From NCBI GenBank assembly GCA_025350055.1, contig JANXYK010000022.1:36988-100987 (forward strand): DNA of 64,000 nucleotides. Reading direction: 5' to 3'. This document shows positions 2,936 to 49,890 of the stretch, piece after piece. The translations under genes were made by a program, and so were the position numbers. How positions within the stretch are numbered: the stretch's first letter is position 1; the number at the start of each line of letters is the position of its first letter. The DNA comes from Gammaproteobacteria bacterium. GTDB taxonomy: Bacteria > Pseudomonadota > Gammaproteobacteria > Steroidobacterales > Steroidobacteraceae. Under the pieces are notes generated by a model, which made no database searches, was not told where the DNA came from, and worked only from the letters and a program-made list of their open reading frames with translations.

Positions 2936-4975
2936 ATGCCAACCAATAATCCGCTGCTGGGCGATTCAGCGCTGCCGCGCTTCGATGCCATTCTCCCTGA
3001 ACACGTGGAACCGGCGATCCGCGCCACGCTGGCGGAGCAGCGCGTCCGCGTGGCCGGGATCGCCGCACTGCCGGAACCCACTTTTGCCACCGTAGTGCTG
3101 CCGCTCGAGCAGATGCGTCATCGCCTGGCGCGCATCTGGTCGCCGGTCGGGCACCTCAACGGTGTGCTCAACTCCGAGGCGCTGCGCGCCGCCTACAACA
3201 GCTGCCTGCCGCTGCTGTCGGAATATTCCACTGATCTGGCGCAGAGCGAGCCGCTTTTCAAGGCTTATCTGGCGATCCGCGAGCGCGAATGGGCATCACT
3301 TGATAACGAACAGCGCGCCGTGCTGGAGCGCGCGCTGCGCGATTTCCGCCTGGCCGGCGTGGCCCTGGATCCGGCGCGCAAGGCGCGCTTCAAGGAAGTG
3401 ATGATCGAGCTGGCGAGGCTCCAGGCCAAGTTCGAGGAAAACGTACTTGATGCCACCAACGCCTTCTCGCACCGGGTCACCGAGGCGAGCGAGCTCGCGG
3501 GCGTCAACCAGGGCCTGATCGAGCGGGCGGCGCGCCGCGCCAGCGAGCAGGGGCTCAGCGGCTGGATCTTCGGGCTCGACCAGCCCACCTATGTGGCAAT
3601 CGTCACCGACGCGCACCATGCACCACTGCGGCGCATCTTCTACGAAGCCTGGACCACGCGCGCCTCGGATCGCGGGCCGAGCGCCGGCATGTTCGACAAC
3701 GGCACGCTGATCGAACAGATCGTGCAGTTGCGCCACGAGGCCGCGCGGCTGCTTGATTTTAATTCCTTCGCCGAGTACGCGCTGGCCGATCGCATGGCGC
3801 ATACCGTGCCGGAAGTCACGGACTTCCTGCGTCAGCTCGCGGCCGCGGCGCGCTCGCATGCCAGCGCGGAGCTGGCCGAGCTCGAGACCTTTGCCGGCCG
3901 CAAGCTCGATGCCTGGGATCTCACCTACTATTCCGAGCGCCTGCAGCACAGCCGCTTCCAGATCTCGCAGGAAGAGCTGCGCGAATTCCTGCCACTGCCG
4001 CGAGTGCTCGCGGGCCTGTTCGAAGTGGCCGAGAAACTCTACGGCGTCACGATCAGCGAACGCGACGGTGTGCCGCTGTGGCATCCGGACGTGCGCTACT
4101 ACGAAGTGCGCTCAGGGAGAGGCGAGCCGCTCGCGAGTTTTTACCTCGATGCCTACGCGCGTTCGCACAAGCGCAGTGGCGCCTGGATGGACGACTGCGT
4201 CGGGCGCAAGCAGCTGCAGGGTGCGCTCACGCTGCCGGTCGCGTATCTCGTATGCAATTCGCTGCCGCCGCAGGATGGCCGGCCAGCGCTGCTCACGCAC
4301 GATGATGTGGTCACGCTGTTCCATGAGTTCGGGCACGGCCTGCATCACATGCTTACGCGCATCGCCTACCCCAGCATCGCCGGCATCAACGGCGTGGCCT
4401 GGGATGCGGTCGAGCTGCCCAGCCAGTTCATGGAGAACTACGCCTGGCTGCCGCAAGTGCTCGAGCGCATCAGCGCCGAAGTGCGCAGCGGACAGCCGCT
4501 GCCCGCCTCCAAGCAGCAGCAGCTGATCGCGACGCGTAGCTACCAGGCGGGCCTGGCCACTTTGCGCCAGGTGGAGTTCGCGCTCTTCGACATGCGCCTG
4601 CACGCCGAGTACGACCCGGCGCGCGGCGCGCGCGCCTATGAGCTGCTGGCCGAAGTGCGCGGCGAAGTGAGCGTGGTGCCGGTGCCGGAATGGAACCGCT
4701 TCCCGCATAATTTCACGCACATCTTCGCCGGTGGTTACGCGGCCGGTTACTACAGCTACAAGTGGGCCGAGGTGCTGGCGGCCGATGCCTTCGCGGCCTT
4801 CGGTGCGCGCAATGCCTTCGATCGCGCGACCGCCGGGCGCTTCCTGGATAGCATCCTGGCGCGCGGCGGCAGCCGCGATCTGCTCGATGCCTTCGTGGAA
4901 TTCCGCGGCCGCAAGCCCGATATCGCGCCGCTCCTGCAGATGCATGGCATCGACACCGCCAGGACTGCGGCCTGA
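2936..4975 (+). CDS. prlC: oligopeptidase A (M3 zinc metallopeptidase)
   Basis: HEFGHGLHH zinc motif and about 680 aa M3 architecture. Start set at ATG 2936 (MPTNNPLL), divergent from gor. Confidence 0.9.
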
Positions 4976-20507: not shown

Positions 20508-21362
20508 ATGAACAGCGCCGCCGCTGCGGCCTCAGGCGCGGACGCGCGCGCAGCTACGCGTGCGGCCTCGCGTGTAGTCCGTCGCACGCAATACCGGCAT
20601 GGTGCGCCCACGATGGGCGAACGCGTGATCGCTGAAGAGACGGCAATCGCCTTTACCTACAATCGCGTCACCCATGCGGTGATGATGGCGACGCCGGCCG
20701 ATCTCGAGGATTTCGCGGTCGGCTTCAGCCTGGCCGAGGGCATCATCCACGCGCCCGCGGATATCGCGGCGCTGCAGATCGTGGCGGTGGATCTCGGCGT
20801 TGAGCTGCGCATGGATATCAGCGCCACGCTCGCCTCGCAGCTGGAGGCGCGCCGGCGCCACATCGCCGGCGTCAGCGGTTGCGGCATGTGCGGCCTGGAA
20901 AGCCTGGAACAGGCGATGCGCAGGCCACCGACCGTGACATCGCGGCTGACGGTGACGCCCGCGATGATCGCCGCGGCGATCGCGCAATTGCCGGCGCTGC
21001 AAGCGATCAACCAACTCACGCGCGCGGTGCACGCGGCGGCGTTCTGGCAGCCAGCCATTGGGCTGGTCGCGTTACGCGAAGATGTCGGTCGCCACAATGC
21101 GCTCGACAAACTGGCGGGTGCACTGACCAGAACCGGCATCGCAGCGGTCGAGGGCGTGGTGCTGCTCACCAGCCGCGTGTCGATCGAGCTGGTGCAGAAG
21201 GTGGCACTGATGGGCATGCCGATCATCGTGGCCGTGTCGGCGCCGACGGCACTGGCGGTACGGGTCGCCGAGGCCGCGGGCATCACGCTCATCGGCGTGG
21301 CGCGCGAGGATGGATTCGAGATTTTCACGCATGCGCAGCGCATTGCTGCATCGGGAGACTGA
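20508..21362 (+). CDS. fdhD: formate dehydrogenase accessory sulfurtransferase FdhD
   Basis: TPADLEDFAVGFSLAEGII, GCGMCG and GRHNALDK FdhD signatures. Confidence 0.85.
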   Translation: MNSAAAAASGADARAATRAASRVVRRTQYRHGAPTMGERVIAEETAIAFTYNRVTHAVMMATPADLEDFAVGFSLAEGIIHAPADIAALQIVAVDLGVELRMDISATLASQLEARRRHIAGVSGCGMCGLESLEQAMRRPPTVTSRLTVTPAMIAAAIAQLPALQAINQLTRAVHAAAFWQPAIGLVALREDVGRHNALDKLAGALTRTGIAAVEGVVLLTSRVSIELVQKVALMGMPIIVAVSAPTALAVRVAEAAGITLIGVAREDGFEIFTHAQRIAASGD

Positions 21363-21363
21363 G

Positions 21364-21576
21364 ATGGAAGCGGAACGACTGGTCAGCATGGCCAATCAGA
21401 TCGCCGTGTTCTTCGAACACGAGGAACCCGCCAAGGCGGTGGAGCGCACCGCCGATCACCTGCGCAAGTACTGGGATCCGCGCATGCGCAAGGCGATCAT
21501 CGCGCACCTCAAGAGCGGCGGCGCTGGTCTGGCGCCGCTGGTGAAAAGCGCGGTGGGTCTGCTGCCGCAGACGTGA
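21364..21576 (+). CDS. fdsD: formate dehydrogenase delta subunit
   Basis: 70-aa protein LVSMANQIAVFFE....HL.KYWDPRMR typical of FdsD. ATG 21364 is 1 nt after the fdhD stop. Confidence 0.75.
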   Translation: MEAERLVSMANQIAVFFEHEEPAKAVERTADHLRKYWDPRMRKAIIAHLKSGGAGLAPLVKSAVGLLPQT

Positions 21577-22322
21577 GCACCCGCCCGGCCAGCATTTTCC
21601 TGGTCGATGACGAACCCGCCATCGCCGAGGCGGTCAGCTTCGCGCTGCAGGCCGAGGGTTTCCGCTGCCGCCATTTCGCCACTGGCGGCGACTGTCTGGC
21701 CGCACTGGCCGGCGAGCAACCCGACCTGGTGCTGCTGGACATCGGCCTGCCCGATGGCAATGGCTTCGACTTCTTCAGGCGCATCCGCGAGCAGGGCGAT
21801 GTGCCGGTGGTATTCCTGACGGCGCGCAAGGAAGAGATCGATCGCGTGGTCGGGCTCGAGATGGGCGCCGACGACTACGTGGTCAAGCCCTTCAGCCTGC
21901 GCGAGCTGATGGCGCGGGTGCGCATGGTGATCCGTCGCAGTGCGGCGGCGCCAGCGAGCAATGCGGTGTCCGCGACTGCAGCCACGCCGGGTGGTGGTTC
22001 GAGCTCGGCGGGTGCTGCGCCGACTGTGGTTGGTCGATTCCAGCAGGATTCGCTGCGACGTCAGATCCGCTACGCGGGCAGTGCACTCGACCTGACGCTG
22101 CACGAATACCGCCTGCTCGAAGTACTGCTGCGCCACGTGGGTCGCGTGTTCACGCGCGCGCAACTGCTCGATCAGGCCTGGGAAGCGCCCGATCATCGCC
22201 TCGATCGCACCATCGACAGCCACATCAAGAGCCTGCGCGCGAAACTGCGTGCCATCGACGCGACTGCCGATCCGATCCACACGCACCGCGGCATGGGCTA
22301 TTCGCTGGAAATCGGCGCTTGA
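21573..22322 (+). CDS. creB: OmpR-family response regulator, CreB-like, with a low-complexity Ala/Ser/Gly linker insert
   Basis: IFLVDDEP receiver and HRGMGYSL winged helix, paired with a CreC-like kinase. GTG 21573 overlaps the fdsD stop (GTGA). Confidence 0.65.
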   Translation: MSTRPASIFLVDDEPAIAEAVSFALQAEGFRCRHFATGGDCLAALAGEQPDLVLLDIGLPDGNGFDFFRRIREQGDVPVVFLTARKEEIDRVVGLEMGADDYVVKPFSLRELMARVRMVIRRSAAAPASNAVSATAATPGGGSSSAGAAPTVVGRFQQDSLRRQIRYAGSALDLTLHEYRLLEVLLRHVGRVFTRAQLLDQAWEAPDHRLDRTIDSHIKSLRAKLRAIDATADPIHTHRGMGYSLEIGA

Positions 22323-23764
22323 GCATCCGCGCCAAGATCTTCCTGGTATTCGTTGCCGCGGTGGTGGCCGGCTTCGGCCTGCTGGCTTACTGGGTCGCCG
22401 GCGACTTGCGCTCGCGCTACAGCGAATCCTTCGAAGAGGTCATGGTCGATGGTGCGCATCTGCTGGCCGCGCAGCTCGCACAGAGCTGGGAGCAGCCGGC
22501 CACCGATCGATTTGCGGCGTTGCAGGGCGCGATGCAGACGCTGCGCGAGCAGACTTTCTCGGCGCGCATTTACTCCGTCGACAAGACCAGTGCCGATATC
22601 CGCGTCTACGTGACCGATGACCTCGGCGATCTGCTCTACGACTCGCGGCCGGGTTCCACACCGGGCGAAGACTATTCGCGCTGGATCGATGTGGCGCGCA
22701 CGATCGCGGGCGGCTACGGCGCGCGCACCACGGAAGAACCCGCGGCCGCGACGACCACGGTCTCGGTAGCCTACGTGGGCGCGCCCATCCTCGTGAACGG
22801 CAAGCTCGTGGGTGTGGTGAGTCTCGGCAAACCCAAGACCAACATCCAGCGCTTCGTCGACAACGCGCGCCGCAAGCTGATCTATGCGGTGCTGGCCGCC
22901 TCCGGTGTCGCCATCATCCTGGCGCTGCTGCTGTACCTGTGGGTCTCGCGCCCGCTGCAGTCGCTGGTCGAATATGCGCATGCGGTAGGTGAGGGCCGCA
23001 GCGAACATCTGCCGCTGCTGGGTGACAACGAGATCGGCCGCGTCGGCGAGGCGATCGAGACGATGCGCAAGGCGCTCGAGGACAAGGCCTATGTCGAAAC
23101 CTACGTGCAGTCGCTAACGCACGAGGTGAAGAGCCCGCTGACCGCAATCCGTGCCAGCGCCGAGCTGCTCGCAGGCGAGGTGCCCGCTGAACGGCGCGTT
23201 GCATTCGTGCAGACCATCGAGAGCGAAGTCGATCGTCTGAGCGATATTTCTGATCGGCTGCTGGAGCTCGCGGCACTCGAGCGCAGTGGGCGCTTGCGCC
23301 ACGCCGAGCCGGTGGCACTGCATGCGCTGGCAGCTCGGGTTGCGGCTGCAACGCGGGCCAGCGCCGCGGCGCGCGGCGTGAGCGTCACCGAGAGCTACAG
23401 TGGGAGCGACGCGGTGCGCGGTGACCCGCTGCTACTGCAGCAGGCGATCGACAACCTGCTGCGCAACGCGCTGGATTTCTCAGGTGCAGGGCAGACCGTG
23501 GCACTCAGTGCCAGCGCCGACAACCTGGGCGTCACGATCAGCGTGCAGGACGAGGGCCCCGGCATTCCCGAGTACGCGCGCGAGCGAATCTTCGACCGCT
23601 TCTATTCACTGCCGCGGCCGGCGAGCGGCCGCAAGTCCACGGGCCTCGGCCTCAACTTCGTGCGCGAAGTGGCCCAGCTGCACGGGGGCAGCATCACGAT
23701 CGAGAATCCGCCGCGTGGCACGCTGGCGCTGCTGTTCATTCCCTGGCGGCCGCCCTACGCCTGA
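22319..23764 (+). CDS. creC: sensor histidine kinase, CreC-like
   Basis: Periplasmic-domain motifs DYSRWIDV, YGARTT and VVSLGKP. H-box LTHEVKSPLTAIR. C-terminal RIFDRFYSLPR..GLGLNFV matches my recollection of E. coli CreC. TTGA overlap with creB. Confidence 0.65.
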   Translation: MSIRAKIFLVFVAAVVAGFGLLAYWVAGDLRSRYSESFEEVMVDGAHLLAAQLAQSWEQPATDRFAALQGAMQTLREQTFSARIYSVDKTSADIRVYVTDDLGDLLYDSRPGSTPGEDYSRWIDVARTIAGGYGARTTEEPAAATTTVSVAYVGAPILVNGKLVGVVSLGKPKTNIQRFVDNARRKLIYAVLAASGVAIILALLLYLWVSRPLQSLVEYAHAVGEGRSEHLPLLGDNEIGRVGEAIETMRKALEDKAYVETYVQSLTHEVKSPLTAIRASAELLAGEVPAERRVAFVQTIESEVDRLSDISDRLLELAALERSGRLRHAEPVALHALAARVAAATRASAAARGVSVTESYSGSDAVRGDPLLLQQAIDNLLRNALDFSGAGQTVALSASADNLGVTISVQDEGPGIPEYARERIFDRFYSLPRPASGRKSTGLGLNFVREVAQLHGGSITIENPPRGTLALLFIPWRPPYA

Positions 23765-23801
23765 GGACACGCCGCACCGCTGACCCCGGCGGCCGCGCGA
23801 T

Positions 23802-23828
23802 TCCACACGTTCTCCACGTCAATTCCAC
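23802..23828 (+). promoter_or_regulatory. three direct TCCAC repeats with exact 11-bp phasing (cre-tag-like candidate response-regulator site)
   Basis: TCCAC at 23802-06, 23813-17 and 23824-28 (TTCCAC / TCTCCAC / TTCCAC), 60-86 bp upstream of ATG 23888. A GGAG SD sits at 23877-80. Confidence 0.5.
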
Positions 23829-23887
23829 GCCCGCACCACAGTGCGGCTGGAAACTGGCAGCGTCGAAGCCACCCATGGAGAACCCTC

Positions 23888-25888
23888 ATGATCGCCATCA
23901 AGACCCGCCTGCGCCGGCTGTGCACGGTGCTTGCGCTGGTCAGTGTTTTCATCCTGTCCTTCAGCATGAGTCGCGCCGCCGGCGAGCCCGAAACCCCGCA
24001 GTCGCCGTACTTCGCAGTCCAGAACGACTCGGGTCTCGACCAGTTCCCGATGAAGGACAGCAAGATCACGGTGCGCCTGAACGGCGTGATCGCGAGCGTC
24101 CATGTGCGCCAGCACTATCGCAACGAGGGCAAGGCGCCGATCAACGCCCGCTACATCTTTCCGGGCTCCACTCGCGCTGCCGTCAATGCGATGACGATGA
24201 CGATCGGCGATCGCCGGCTGGTGGCGCAGATCAAGGAGAAGCAGCAGGCGCGGCAGATCTTCGCGGCCGCGAAAGCCGCGGGCCAGACAGCCTCGCTCCT
24301 CAGCCAGCAGCGCCCGAATGTGTTTTCGATGGATGTCGCCAACATCGTCGCGGGTGACGATGTCGTGGTCGACATGGAGTACACCGAATTCCTCAGCGCC
24401 AACGAGGGCGTGTACGAATTCATGTACCCGGGCGTGGTCGGTCCGCGCTATGGCGGTGATGCCGATCGCGCGGGACCTGGCCAGGCAGTCGCGTGGATCT
24501 CGAACCCGTACCTGCGCAAGGGCAAGGACAGTGCCACCACGCAGGACATCGAAGTGCAGCTGGCTTCGCCGATCGTGATCCATGACCTGCAGTCGCCCAC
24601 GCACCAGATCATCACGCGCTGGAGCGGCCCCGGCAACGCCGTGGTGCGCCTCAACGAGCCGCGCGAGAGCGCCGGCAATCGCGACTACGTGCTGCGCTAC
24701 CGATTGCAGGACAACGCCATCGTCTCGGGCATCACGCGCTTCACGGCCGGCAATGAAAACTACTTCATGCTGCAGGCCGAGCCGCCCAAGCGCGTGGCGC
24801 GCGCCGACCTGCCGGCGCGCGACTACGTGTTCATCCTCGACATCTCGGGTTCGATGGAGGGCTTTCCGCTCACGACCGCCAAATCGCTGATCGACAAGTT
24901 GCTCGCCGGCCTCAACAGCAACGACCGCTTCAACATCCTGTTTTTTTCCGGCGGCTCGCAGACCCTGAGCCCGGCCTCGCTCCCCGTGACGCCGGAGAAC
25001 CTGGCGCTGGCGCGCGAGATGCTGAGCCACATGTCGGGTGGCGGTGGCACCGAACTGTTGCCGGCGTTGCAACAGGCGCTCGCGATGCCGGTGGCGGAAG
25101 GCACCTCGCGCAGTCTCGTGGTGATCACCGATGGCTACATCACCGCCGAGGGCAGCGCCTTCCGGCTGGTGGACGAAAACCTCGGCCACAACAACCTGTT
25201 CGCCTTCGGCATCGGCAGCGCCGTGAACCGCTTCCTGATCGAGGGACTGGCGAAGGTGGGTCGCGCCGAAGCCTTCGTGGTCAGCAACGAGAACGACGCG
25301 GCGCGCGAAGCCGAGCGCTTCCGCAACTACATCTCGGCGCCGGTTCTGACCGACATCAAGGTGTCGGGCAATGGCGTGGAGCTGTATGACACCGAGCCCG
25401 CGGCGCAGCCCGACCTGCTGGCCGAGCGTCCGATCCTGGTGCTGGGCAAATACCGTGGCGCCAGCGGCACTGCCAGCATCGAGCTCTCGGGCATTGCCGG
25501 CAGTGGTCCGAAGAGCTGGAAGTTCGCACTCAGCGATGCCGACAAGGATCGCAACCTCCCGCTGTTGTGGGCGCGCAAGCGGCTCGAGCGCCTGTATGTG
25601 TTTCCCAATGCGGCCGACACGGCGCGCGAGGAAATCCTAAGCCTCGGCATGAAGTATTCGCTGCTCACCAGCGCGACTTCATTCATCGCGGTTGACGAGA
25701 AGATCTCGAACAGTGGTGCGCCGGCGGCTGATGTCAAGCAGCCCCAGCCACTCCCGGCGGGTGTGGAGAACACTGCCGTCGGCGCACCGCTCCAGCCGGC
25801 GCCCGAGCCCGAGGCACCGCTGCTGGTCTGGTTTGCTGCCCTGTTGCTGGCGCTGCGCGCATTGTTGCGCAGGTCGAGTGGTGTTTAA
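23888..25888 (+). CDS. secreted VIT + von Willebrand factor A domain protein with C-terminal PEP-CTERM-like sorting tail
   Basis: Signal peptide; VIT-like N-terminus (..YIFPGSTRAAVNAMTMTIGDRRLVAQIKEK..RPNVFSMDVANI); MIDAS FILDISGSMEG. The tail is APEPE, then the hydrophobic stretch APLLVWFAALLLALRALL, then RR. Confidence 0.85.
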   Translation: MIAIKTRLRRLCTVLALVSVFILSFSMSRAAGEPETPQSPYFAVQNDSGLDQFPMKDSKITVRLNGVIASVHVRQHYRNEGKAPINARYIFPGSTRAAVNAMTMTIGDRRLVAQIKEKQQARQIFAAAKAAGQTASLLSQQRPNVFSMDVANIVAGDDVVVDMEYTEFLSANEGVYEFMYPGVVGPRYGGDADRAGPGQAVAWISNPYLRKGKDSATTQDIEVQLASPIVIHDLQSPTHQIITRWSGPGNAVVRLNEPRESAGNRDYVLRYRLQDNAIVSGITRFTAGNENYFMLQAEPPKRVARADLPARDYVFILDISGSMEGFPLTTAKSLIDKLLAGLNSNDRFNILFFSGGSQTLSPASLPVTPENLALAREMLSHMSGGGGTELLPALQQALAMPVAEGTSRSLVVITDGYITAEGSAFRLVDENLGHNNLFAFGIGSAVNRFLIEGLAKVGRAEAFVVSNENDAAREAERFRNYISAPVLTDIKVSGNGVELYDTEPAAQPDLLAERPILVLGKYRGASGTASIELSGIAGSGPKSWKFALSDADKDRNLPLLWARKRLERLYVFPNAADTAREEILSLGMKYSLLTSATSFIAVDEKISNSGAPAADVKQPQPLPAGVENTAVGAPLQPAPEPEAPLLVWFAALLLALRALLRRSSGV

Positions 25889-26675
25889 TCCACTGACACA
25901 AGCCCGGCAGTCACTGCTTTGGTGGCTGCCGGCCGCTGGCATCGCTGCAGCGCTGAAGTGGCACTTCAGCGCTGCAGACTCCTGGGCGCTGAATTGGATG
26001 CTGCAGCCGCTGTCGCTTGCACTGCACGGGTTCACCGGTTGGAATTTCCTGCGCACCGCGGATGGCGACTGGACAAGCCGCGATGCCGGCATCGCGCTGG
26101 TGAAAGCCTGCGCAGGCATCAACTTCATGACCATGTCGTTCATCGCCTGGTGCCTGACGTTGCAGCCGAAGTGGGCCGACGCACCGGTGCTGTCGCCAGT
26201 CGCGTTGTGGCCGAAGCGAACGCCGTGGCAGCCGTTGCCGCCCACGCCGGTGTCGGCGTCGGTGCCGGCGCAGCCGCGTCCCGAGCTACTCGAGTGCGCA
26301 CGGCGGCTGGCAGCGGCGCTGCTGCTCGCCTGGCTCAGCGCACTCGCCGTCAATACGCTGCGCGTGATCGCCGTGGTGCACTGGCAACCGTCATTGCAAC
26401 AGTGGATGGCACCTGAAACCGCGCATCGGCTGATCGGCATAGTGATCTACCTGAGCGCACTCACGCTGCAGCTGCTGCCGGGCGAGGGGCGGCGCTGGAA
26501 CAAGGCCGCGCTTCACGGCGCGCTGATCTATGGCGCCGTGATGCTGATCCTGCCCATGTTGAGTGGCAACGCCGTGGCGAGCCCGGCGCAATACGTCGAG
26601 CATGCACTCGCGGTGCTGATCGTCATGGTGCCGCTGCTCGCGGCGGCGCTGCTCAGCCGATATGGAACACGTTGA
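25878..26675 (+). CDS. compact exosortase/archaeosortase-family intramembrane protein (about 265 aa, about 7 TM)
   Basis: Motifs in the expected order inside TM helices: ACAGI (Cys 26109-11), NTLRV (Arg 26361-63) and AHRLIG (His 26424-26). GTG 25878/25881 overlaps the TAA of the VIT gene (25886-88). Track ORF start 25692 rejected. Confidence 0.7.
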   Translation: MVFNPLTQARQSLLWWLPAAGIAAALKWHFSAADSWALNWMLQPLSLALHGFTGWNFLRTADGDWTSRDAGIALVKACAGINFMTMSFIAWCLTLQPKWADAPVLSPVALWPKRTPWQPLPPTPVSASVPAQPRPELLECARRLAAALLLAWLSALAVNTLRVIAVVHWQPSLQQWMAPETAHRLIGIVIYLSALTLQLLPGEGRRWNKAALHGALIYGAVMLILPMLSGNAVASPAQYVEHALAVLIVMVPLLAAALLSRYGTR

Positions 26676-49803: not shown

Positions 49804-49890
49804 GACAGGGTTCCTCACTGAAGTGAATCTTCAGCAGTTGAACCCCTCGAACACACCGAAAGTTTCAGTGCGCCGGTCCCGCTCGTACCC

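Follow-up and report, generated by a model that had tools for sequence, protein, structure and literature searches.

CreBC is a widespread two-component system for which, to our knowledge, creD is the only universal target so far. The activation of promoters by OmpR-family regulators bound to phased repeats is a textbook principle. The cre/blr tag, which consists of TTCAC-N6-TTCAC upstream of creD, has been described as critical for the binding of activated CreB/BlrA (PMC4689548, PMC13214185). In S. maltophilia, a putative homologue of this tag lies at approximately −80 to −65 relative to the creD start codon, within an 81-bp creC–creD spacer (PMC4689548). The Pho boxes recognized by PhoB follow a defined promoter rule: the repeats take the place of the −35 element, and 10 bp separate their end from a weak −10 hexamer downstream (PMC1906773). 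For the exosortase K system, a full-text literature search retrieved no published regulatory input.

The locus addressed here belongs to an uncultured member of the Steroidobacteraceae represented by a metagenome-assembled genome. The whole stretch of DNA that was analyzed, hereafter the window, has a length of 64,000 nucleotides (JANXYK010000022.1, positions 36988–100987), and its parent assembly comprises 3.29 Mb with 65% G+C. Between creC and the gene for an exported VIT-vWA protein, termed the cargo, the window carries an array of phased direct repeats. With a probability of about 0.75, and judging from sequence, we read this array as a cre-tag-type CreB operator that activates the VIT-vWA/exosortase K operon, in the slot that is normally creD's. 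Most likely, it would be an operator of a known type, in variant form, wired to an unusual target: a surface protein together with a sorting enzyme.

The creBC–cargo locus and its repeat array

The identification of the upstream genes as creB and creC, made in the first-pass annotation, holds, since both products pass the NCBIfam equivalog cut-offs for CreB and CreC (Table 1). The CreB of the window is 44% identical to that of E. coli. Its recognition helix reads DRTIDSHIKSLRAKLRAI, compared with DRTVDTHIKTLRAKLRAI in E. coli, and the wing is THRGMGYS in both, leaving helix and wing nearly identical. Downstream, the exosortase gene can begin at an in-frame GTG GTG (25878–25883), ahead of the cargo TAA at 25886–25888. 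Because this start overlaps the cargo stop, the cargo and exosortase K-like genes are probably co-transcribed.

Table 1. Coordinates of genes and sequence elements in the window
Feature	Position	Strand	Basis
fdhD	20508–21362		Pfam and NCBIfam
fdsD	21310–21576		Pfam
creB-type OmpR/PhoB-family response regulator, proposed to bind the array	21573–22322	+	NCBIfam NF008296 CreB, 292 bits (cut-off 273)
creC-type sensor histidine kinase	22319–23764	+	NCBIfam NF008312 CreC, 510 bits (cut-off 356); HAMP, HisKA, HATPase_c
R0 position (ancestral unit, degenerate here: GCGGCCG)	23789–23795	+	nnnnCA(C/T) in 10/14 orthologous regions
R1, ATTCCAC	23800–23806	+	First TCCAC; ATTyCAy in 14/14
R2, TCTCCAC	23811–23817	+	Second TCCAC; TCTCCAy in 13/14, TATCCAT in one
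R3, ATTCCAC, weaker variable unit	23822–23828	+	Third TCCAC; position 5 C in 14/14, position 6 A in 10/14
Inverted repeat CCGCAC-caca-GTGCGG, probably incidental	23831–23846		Shares bases with R4 and with the freely varying spacer ahead of the −10
R4, GCACCAC, promoter-proximal unit	23833–23839	+	nnnnCA(C/T) in phase, 14/14
Putative weak −10 hexamer GAAACT	23850–23855	+	GAnACT in 13/14, GACAGT in one
CGTCG block around the presumed start of transcription	23861–23865	+	Nearly invariant in the 14-sequence alignment
Shine-Dalgarno GGAG of the cargo gene	23877–23880	+	Invariant in 14/14; 7–8 nt before the ATG
VIT-vWA exported cargo gene, proposed target	23888–25888	+	Pfam VIT and VWA; TIGR03788 (marine sortase target) 403 bits, below the cut-off of 552
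Exosortase K-like gene	25878–26675	+	TIGR04287 XrtK, 62 bits (cut-off 55)

In the genome of the window, the fds formate dehydrogenase genes precede creBC with almost no gaps, and creB starts at a GTG that overlaps the stop codon of fdsD (21573–21576). Two relatives (G014 and G004) have non-coding DNA before creB, with no FdsD match there, which indicates that the fds–creBC fusion is lineage-specific and that creB–creC–cargo–xrtK constitutes the conserved module. Nothing convincing in the way of an autoregulatory tag was found upstream of creB in these two genomes.

The creC stop codon (23762–23764) and the cargo ATG at 23888 enclose a spacer of 123 bp. The pentamer TCCAC occurs within it at 23802–23806, 23813–23817, and 23824–23828, in the successive contexts aTTCCAC, TCTCCAC, and aTTCCAC. 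The coordinates, the exact 11-bp period, and the position 60–86 bp before the cargo ATG given by the first-pass annotation are all correct. Its count of three repeats, while accurate for TCCAC itself, missed an in-phase fourth unit, GCACCAC, which overlaps the 5′ arm of the adjacent inverted repeat. The three TCCAC repeats are units R1–R3 of a longer array, which on sequence comparison has four units here and five in relatives and in the presumed ancestor. These units are 7-bp direct repeats with the consensus (A/T)(T/C)T(C/T)CA(C/T) and a period of 11 bp. The complete R1–R4 array occupies 23800–23839, begins 36 bp past the creC stop, and extends from −88 to −49 relative to the cargo ATG.

This arrangement is rare in the genome. 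Counting both strands, the 3.29-Mb assembly contains TCCAC 5415 times (8.2 × 10−4 per position per strand), from which approximately 0.004 triples phased at 11 bp are expected genome-wide; one was found, the window array. Phased pairs number seven against approximately 4.5 expected, and two of the seven belong to the same array. Among 200,000 shuffled versions of the 123-bp spacer, 0.1% contained some pentamer as a triple phased at 10 or 11 bp, and none contained such a triple of a pentamer with at most one mismatch from TTCAC.

The genome was further scanned with the exact pentamer triple, with the R1–R2 pattern allowing at most one mismatch, and with a three-unit TYCAY score. The latter two scans matched coding regions only, apart from one array on contig C55, and no other intergenic CreB-type site was detected in the genome. 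Exact TTCAC-N6-TTCAC is absent from the whole genome, as is creD. The search for further copies of the phased motif, which had been suggested at the outset, thus leaves the window array as the unique intergenic site in a genome without creD. On these grounds, CreB appears to have no direct target in this genome other than the cargo operon.

The sole other perfect three-unit match is the A+T-rich TTCTATTCAT array on contig C55, which lies outside the window. At 21440–21600 of that contig, an A+T-rich island contains three to four copies of TTCTATTCAT, in which TTCAT recurs three times with an 11-bp period. The island precedes the gene of an HTH-containing protein. This array was judged unrelated; it resembles the operator of a module acquired by horizontal transfer. 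Another element outside the window, at positions 49890–49930 of contig C29, is a long palindrome (TTACGCGTAATCGACATATATGTCGACTACGCGTAA) that immediately precedes a pair of genes on the minus strand, which we would guess to be a toxin–antitoxin system.

Conservation of the array and its linkage to the cargo gene

Whole-genome searches of the genus and family yielded 13 further cargo loci, with protein identities of 62–97%, and the 14 upstream regions were aligned. These regions come from two Steroidobacteraceae genera of a single family and are not fully independent, so the conservation described below counts lineages. All 14 align without gaps from R0 to the GAnACT hexamer, and the DNA further upstream cannot be aligned. 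R1 and R2 are almost invariant, whereas R3 and R4 are degenerate apart from a core: the fifth position of the heptamer is C in 14/14 sequences for every unit from R0 to R4, and the sixth is A in 10 of the 14 sequences at R3 and in every one at R4. The 4-bp spacers between units vary freely. The ancestral unit R0 reads, for example, TCTCCAT or TTTCCAC in relatives and has decayed in the genome of the window (G000) and in three others (G018, GL14, and G226).

The half-site itself varies within this set. Four of the 14 regions (GL14, G032, G165, and G069) have the canonical TTCAC within R1, which reads ATTTCAC there, and R0 of G014 is cgTTCAC; TTCAC is therefore covered by the lineage consensus TyCAy. 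Downstream of the array, the order is the same in the 14 sequences: GAnACT, CGTCG, a ribosome site (GGAG), and the start codon. The repeat, whose conservation before orthologous VIT-vWA genes had been put forward as a check on the CreB-target reading, is kept down to 62% protein identity and across two genera.

These results bear on the alternative that the repeat arose by chance and has no function. Pentamer repeats can arise in a window of 64 kb, and this one was picked after being seen. Set against this are the expectation of 0.004 triples per genome and the near-invariance of the units where the proteins are only 62–66% identical and the flanking non-coding DNA is unalignable. Conservation has effectively ruled out the chance reading, which we regard as extremely improbable.

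The array belongs to the cargo gene, with which it stays where creC is separated. In copy a of G004, an intact cargo gene lies behind unrelated A+T-rich DNA with no creC upstream, and the array is kept at the same distance to the ATG. In G165, approximately 2.4 kb separate creC from the cargo, and the array remains beside the latter. At the level of whole genomes, the cargo and creBC go together: a cargo orthologue occurs in six of 201 sampled family genomes, and a creC orthologue (at least 62% identity) in exactly those six. Among 37 genomes of the genus, the cargo is present in eight and creC in seven, and in the discordant genome (G001) the cargo lies 55 bp from a contig end. In 12 of the 14 loci, creBC and the cargo are adjacent.

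Both of the rearranged loci show additional peculiarities. G004 has two cargo copies with the same array (contigs C17 and C23), and its creC-linked copy is split into three frames, reflecting either a pseudogene or assembly errors. In G165, a divergent gene for a pro-kumamolisin/sedolisin-type protease (contig C2; positions 3651–4961 of locus L044) lies between creC and the cargo, and creC contains an in-frame TAG.

Promoter geometry and a possible route of activation

The distance from the end of R4 to GAnACT (GACAGT in one sequence) is a constant 10 bp in 14/14 regions. The hexamer of the window, GAAACT, matches TATAAT at three of six positions, and a scan of the creC–cargo spacer found no consensus sigma-70 promoter, as expected for an activator-dependent promoter. 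Because the constant 10-bp gap between R4 and a −10-like hexamer corresponds to the geometry of the Pho box, a PhoB-like mechanism is proposed.

According to this proposal, CreC would phosphorylate CreB, and dimers of CreB~P would bind head-to-tail to the near-invariant R1–R2 pair, a strong box, and cooperatively to the weaker R3–R4 box. The latter would cover the −35 position and end 10 bp before the weak −10 hexamer, to which bound CreB may recruit RNA polymerase in the way that PhoB does at Pho boxes. Transcription would start near 23861–23863, so that the array would span approximately −62 to −23, and the transcript would comprise a short leader with the GGAG ribosome site and would encode the VIT-vWA cargo along with the exosortase K gene that overlaps it. 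The cargo/exosortase operon would in this manner hold the slot of creD in canonical creBCD clusters. That CreB binds, that it acts as an activator and not as a repressor, and where the −10 hexamer and the start site lie are inferred from the sequence and its comparative analysis.

Around the presumed start, the segment at 23856–23866 shows the conserved GAnACTG, four to five variable bases, and then the nearly invariant CGTCG. The conservation of CGTCG goes beyond the usual need of a start site, and this block could serve initiation or be bound by a second protein.

Other promoter assignments were considered and set aside. A sigma-54 promoter, TGGCAG-N5-AAGCC at 23855–23870, has the right GG-N10-GC spacing, but its GG is not conserved, being TGC or TGA in six of the 14 sequences, and CreB is not an enhancer-binding protein. 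For an ECF-type promoter (GAAC ... CGTC), the conserved blocks are merely 5 nt apart. An alternative −10 hexamer, CACAGT at 23837–23842, would center R1–R2 near −41; it is not conserved in G005 and G004, and GAnACT is preferred.

The same spacer admits a different role for CreB, which might bind the array and repress or modulate read-through from creC, as a roadblock or autoregulatory brake, with the cargo forming the distal part of a creBC–cargo–xrtK transcript. This would agree with the lack of a terminator-like site between creC and the cargo and of a consensus promoter in the spacer. Moreover, creD expression in S. maltophilia rises upon deletion of creBC, which shows that CreB sites are not always activating (PMC4689548). 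However, the position of the array and the GAnACT and CGTCG blocks are kept in G004a and G165, whose cargo copies need a promoter of their own because creC is not immediately upstream, and the fixed 10 bp to a −10-like hexamer is an activation geometry and not that of a roadblock. We therefore consider a purely repressive or modulating role unlikely and retain activation by CreB as the preferred reading. Since no terminator intervenes, read-through from creC could matter as well, contributing to or even dominating cargo expression.

A further explanation places the function of the repeats and the adjacent hairpin in RNA, as a stabilizer of the creC 3′ end, a terminator, or a 5′-UTR element. 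In the window genome, the 36-nt stretch 23822–23857 folds at −15.7 kcal/mol (z = −2.9), with R3 pairing with the GGAA of the putative −10, and comparable hairpins in differing registers are formed in G005, G004b, and G032. Across eight lineages, however, z-scores range from −3.0 to +1.1, and four of the eight (G021, GL14, G014, and G004a; z from −0.5 to +1.1) have no significant hairpin; G021 and GL14 among them are 89%-identical relatives. No T-run follows the inverted repeat, a terminator scan made no call between creC and the cargo, and an Rfam scan of 23600–24000 returned no matches. The combination that identifies an intrinsic terminator, a conserved hairpin with a T-run, is thus missing at 23831–23846. 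In addition, direct repeats phased at 11 bp with free spacers are a signature of DNA binding rather than of RNA pairing. Taken together, a role in RNA appears very improbable.

The inverted repeat had initially been suggested to be a creC terminator or a part of the control region. Its coordinates are exact, but this suggestion is not sustained: because it is not conserved and no terminator-like site was scored, a dedicated function of the repeat in termination or control is unlikely. It is probably incidental or, at most, lineage-specific. The hairpin was likewise rejected as a conserved RNA or terminator element, being absent in close relatives and without a terminator call.

Comparison with known CreB operators and sorting modules

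The creC–creD junctions of other bacteria provide a frame for interpreting the array. The junction of E. coli K-12 reads cTTCACcgtcacTTCACatagcTTCAAattcTTCCCAC and contains four phased units, spaced by 11, 10, and 11, which overlap the creC stop. The units are followed by 10 bp and then by TATCCT, and the distance from the first unit to the creD ATG is 77 bp (array at −77 to −41). Another genus of the same family (G173) has a canonical creB–creC–creD cluster, with scores of 315, 604, and 461 bits, all above the cut-offs, and its creC–creD spacer contains CCCACACAA twice at an 11-bp period. In a genome of the same order (G406), TCTCCACggaaTCTCCAC lies directly after the creC stop, followed by a further CTCCAC, 10 bp, and TAGGGT; the R2 heptamer is present there twice, as TCTCCAC-N4-TCTCCAC. 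Canonical creC–creD junctions of this order thus carry phased TCTCCAC or CCCACAC units, and phased GCCACA or CCAC units precede creD elsewhere in the order. In further families of the order, GCCACAATTCG recurs two to four times before creD at a 10–11-bp period; it would be another half-site variant of the presumed CreB operator.

These junctions help to weigh the possibility that the array serves another direct-repeat-binding regulator, for example a different member of the OmpR/PhoB family, with the adjacency of creBC being coincidental or reflecting co-regulation at another level. Regulators of this family all bind direct repeats phased at 10–11 bp, the genome encodes further OmpR-family regulators, and the half-site is TCCAC here against the published TTCAC (PMC4689548). 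Yet creBC and the cargo co-occur perfectly in the six family genomes that have them and are mostly neighbors, canonical creC–creD junctions of the order use the same heptamers, four orthologues have TTCAC in R1, and CreB shares a conserved recognition helix with its E. coli counterpart. We judge it improbable that a regulator other than CreB is the one that binds.

The initial description of the repeats as cre-tag-like, with the same period and nearly the same pentamer, is supported by TTCAC in R1 of 4/14 orthologues, by a position comparable to that of the putative S. maltophilia tag and of the E. coli units, and by the phased units of creC–creD junctions. When the window is compared with the published tag element by element, at least two TTCAC pentamers are replaced by three TCCAC and the CCAC of R4, with four of five positions matching in each unit. 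The 6-nt spacer between pentamers is preserved in an exact 11-bp period over four units here and five in relatives. With respect to position only, the array lies less than approximately 100 bp before the start of the gene directly downstream of creC, and the genome encodes a CreB orthologue that scores above the NF008296 cut-off.

More tentatively, and at slightly less than even odds, we propose that this Steroidobacteraceae branch of CreBC has been rewired by cargo replacement, so that the creD slot and a multi-unit operator drive a single-cargo exosortase K/VIT-vWA adhesin operon as the sole direct target of CreB. If so, CreC signaling, whose natural stimulus is poorly defined, would control the display of a surface protein. 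The published two-unit cre tag would then under-describe the real CreB operator, which would have four to five units with the proximal one 10 bp from the −10. On the main reading, the locus would offer comparative evidence that CreB operators are phased-unit arrays with PhoB-like geometry and not simple two-unit tags, along with a clean, probably single-operon CreB regulon for studying output and signal and a regulatory handle on an exosortase K system. The practical importance is modest, since the organism is uncultured and the principle is a textbook one.

A partial counterpart was observed in another family (G058, contig C20), where the cargo comes first: after a VIT-vWA homologue (30% identity) there are two ORFs and then a CreC-like kinase (37% identity). 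Upstream of this cargo, CACA-rich repeats occur with no clean phasing, and a creD fragment lies on another contig of the same genome.

Among described systems, the proteobacterial dedicated sortase system is one of the closest to this module; we take it to consist of a TIGR03784 sortase, a TIGR03788 VIT-vWA target, a TIGR03785 kinase, and a TIGR03787 regulator. Both share the four-gene theme of a VIT-vWA surface protein, a sorting enzyme, and a two-component system, and TIGR03788 is the best NCBIfam match of the cargo, although below its cut-off. They differ in the sorting enzyme, which here is of the exosortase K type and not a sortase, and in the two-component system, whose kinase and regulator score 510 and 292 bits as CreC and CreB against 115 and 146 bits for TIGR03785 and TIGR03787.

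With the E. coli Pho box of PhoB, the array shares tandem direct repeats at 11 bp, the 10-bp distance to a putative weak −10, and a proposed tandem of high- and low-affinity boxes. The half-site sequence and the regulator differ, and the analogy is one of mechanism only. With the cre tag, it shares direct repeats at an 11-bp period, a location just past creC and approximately 60–90 bp before the next start codon, and a CreB equivalog with a conserved recognition helix encoded next door. The likeness to the E. coli creC–creD junction extends to four phased units, the 10-bp gap, and a −10-like hexamer. In contrast to the cre tag, the half-site is TCCAC or, for the lineage, TyCAy instead of TTCAC, the lineage conserves four to five units where the published tag has two, and the target of this predicted operator is a VIT-vWA exosortase cargo instead of creD.
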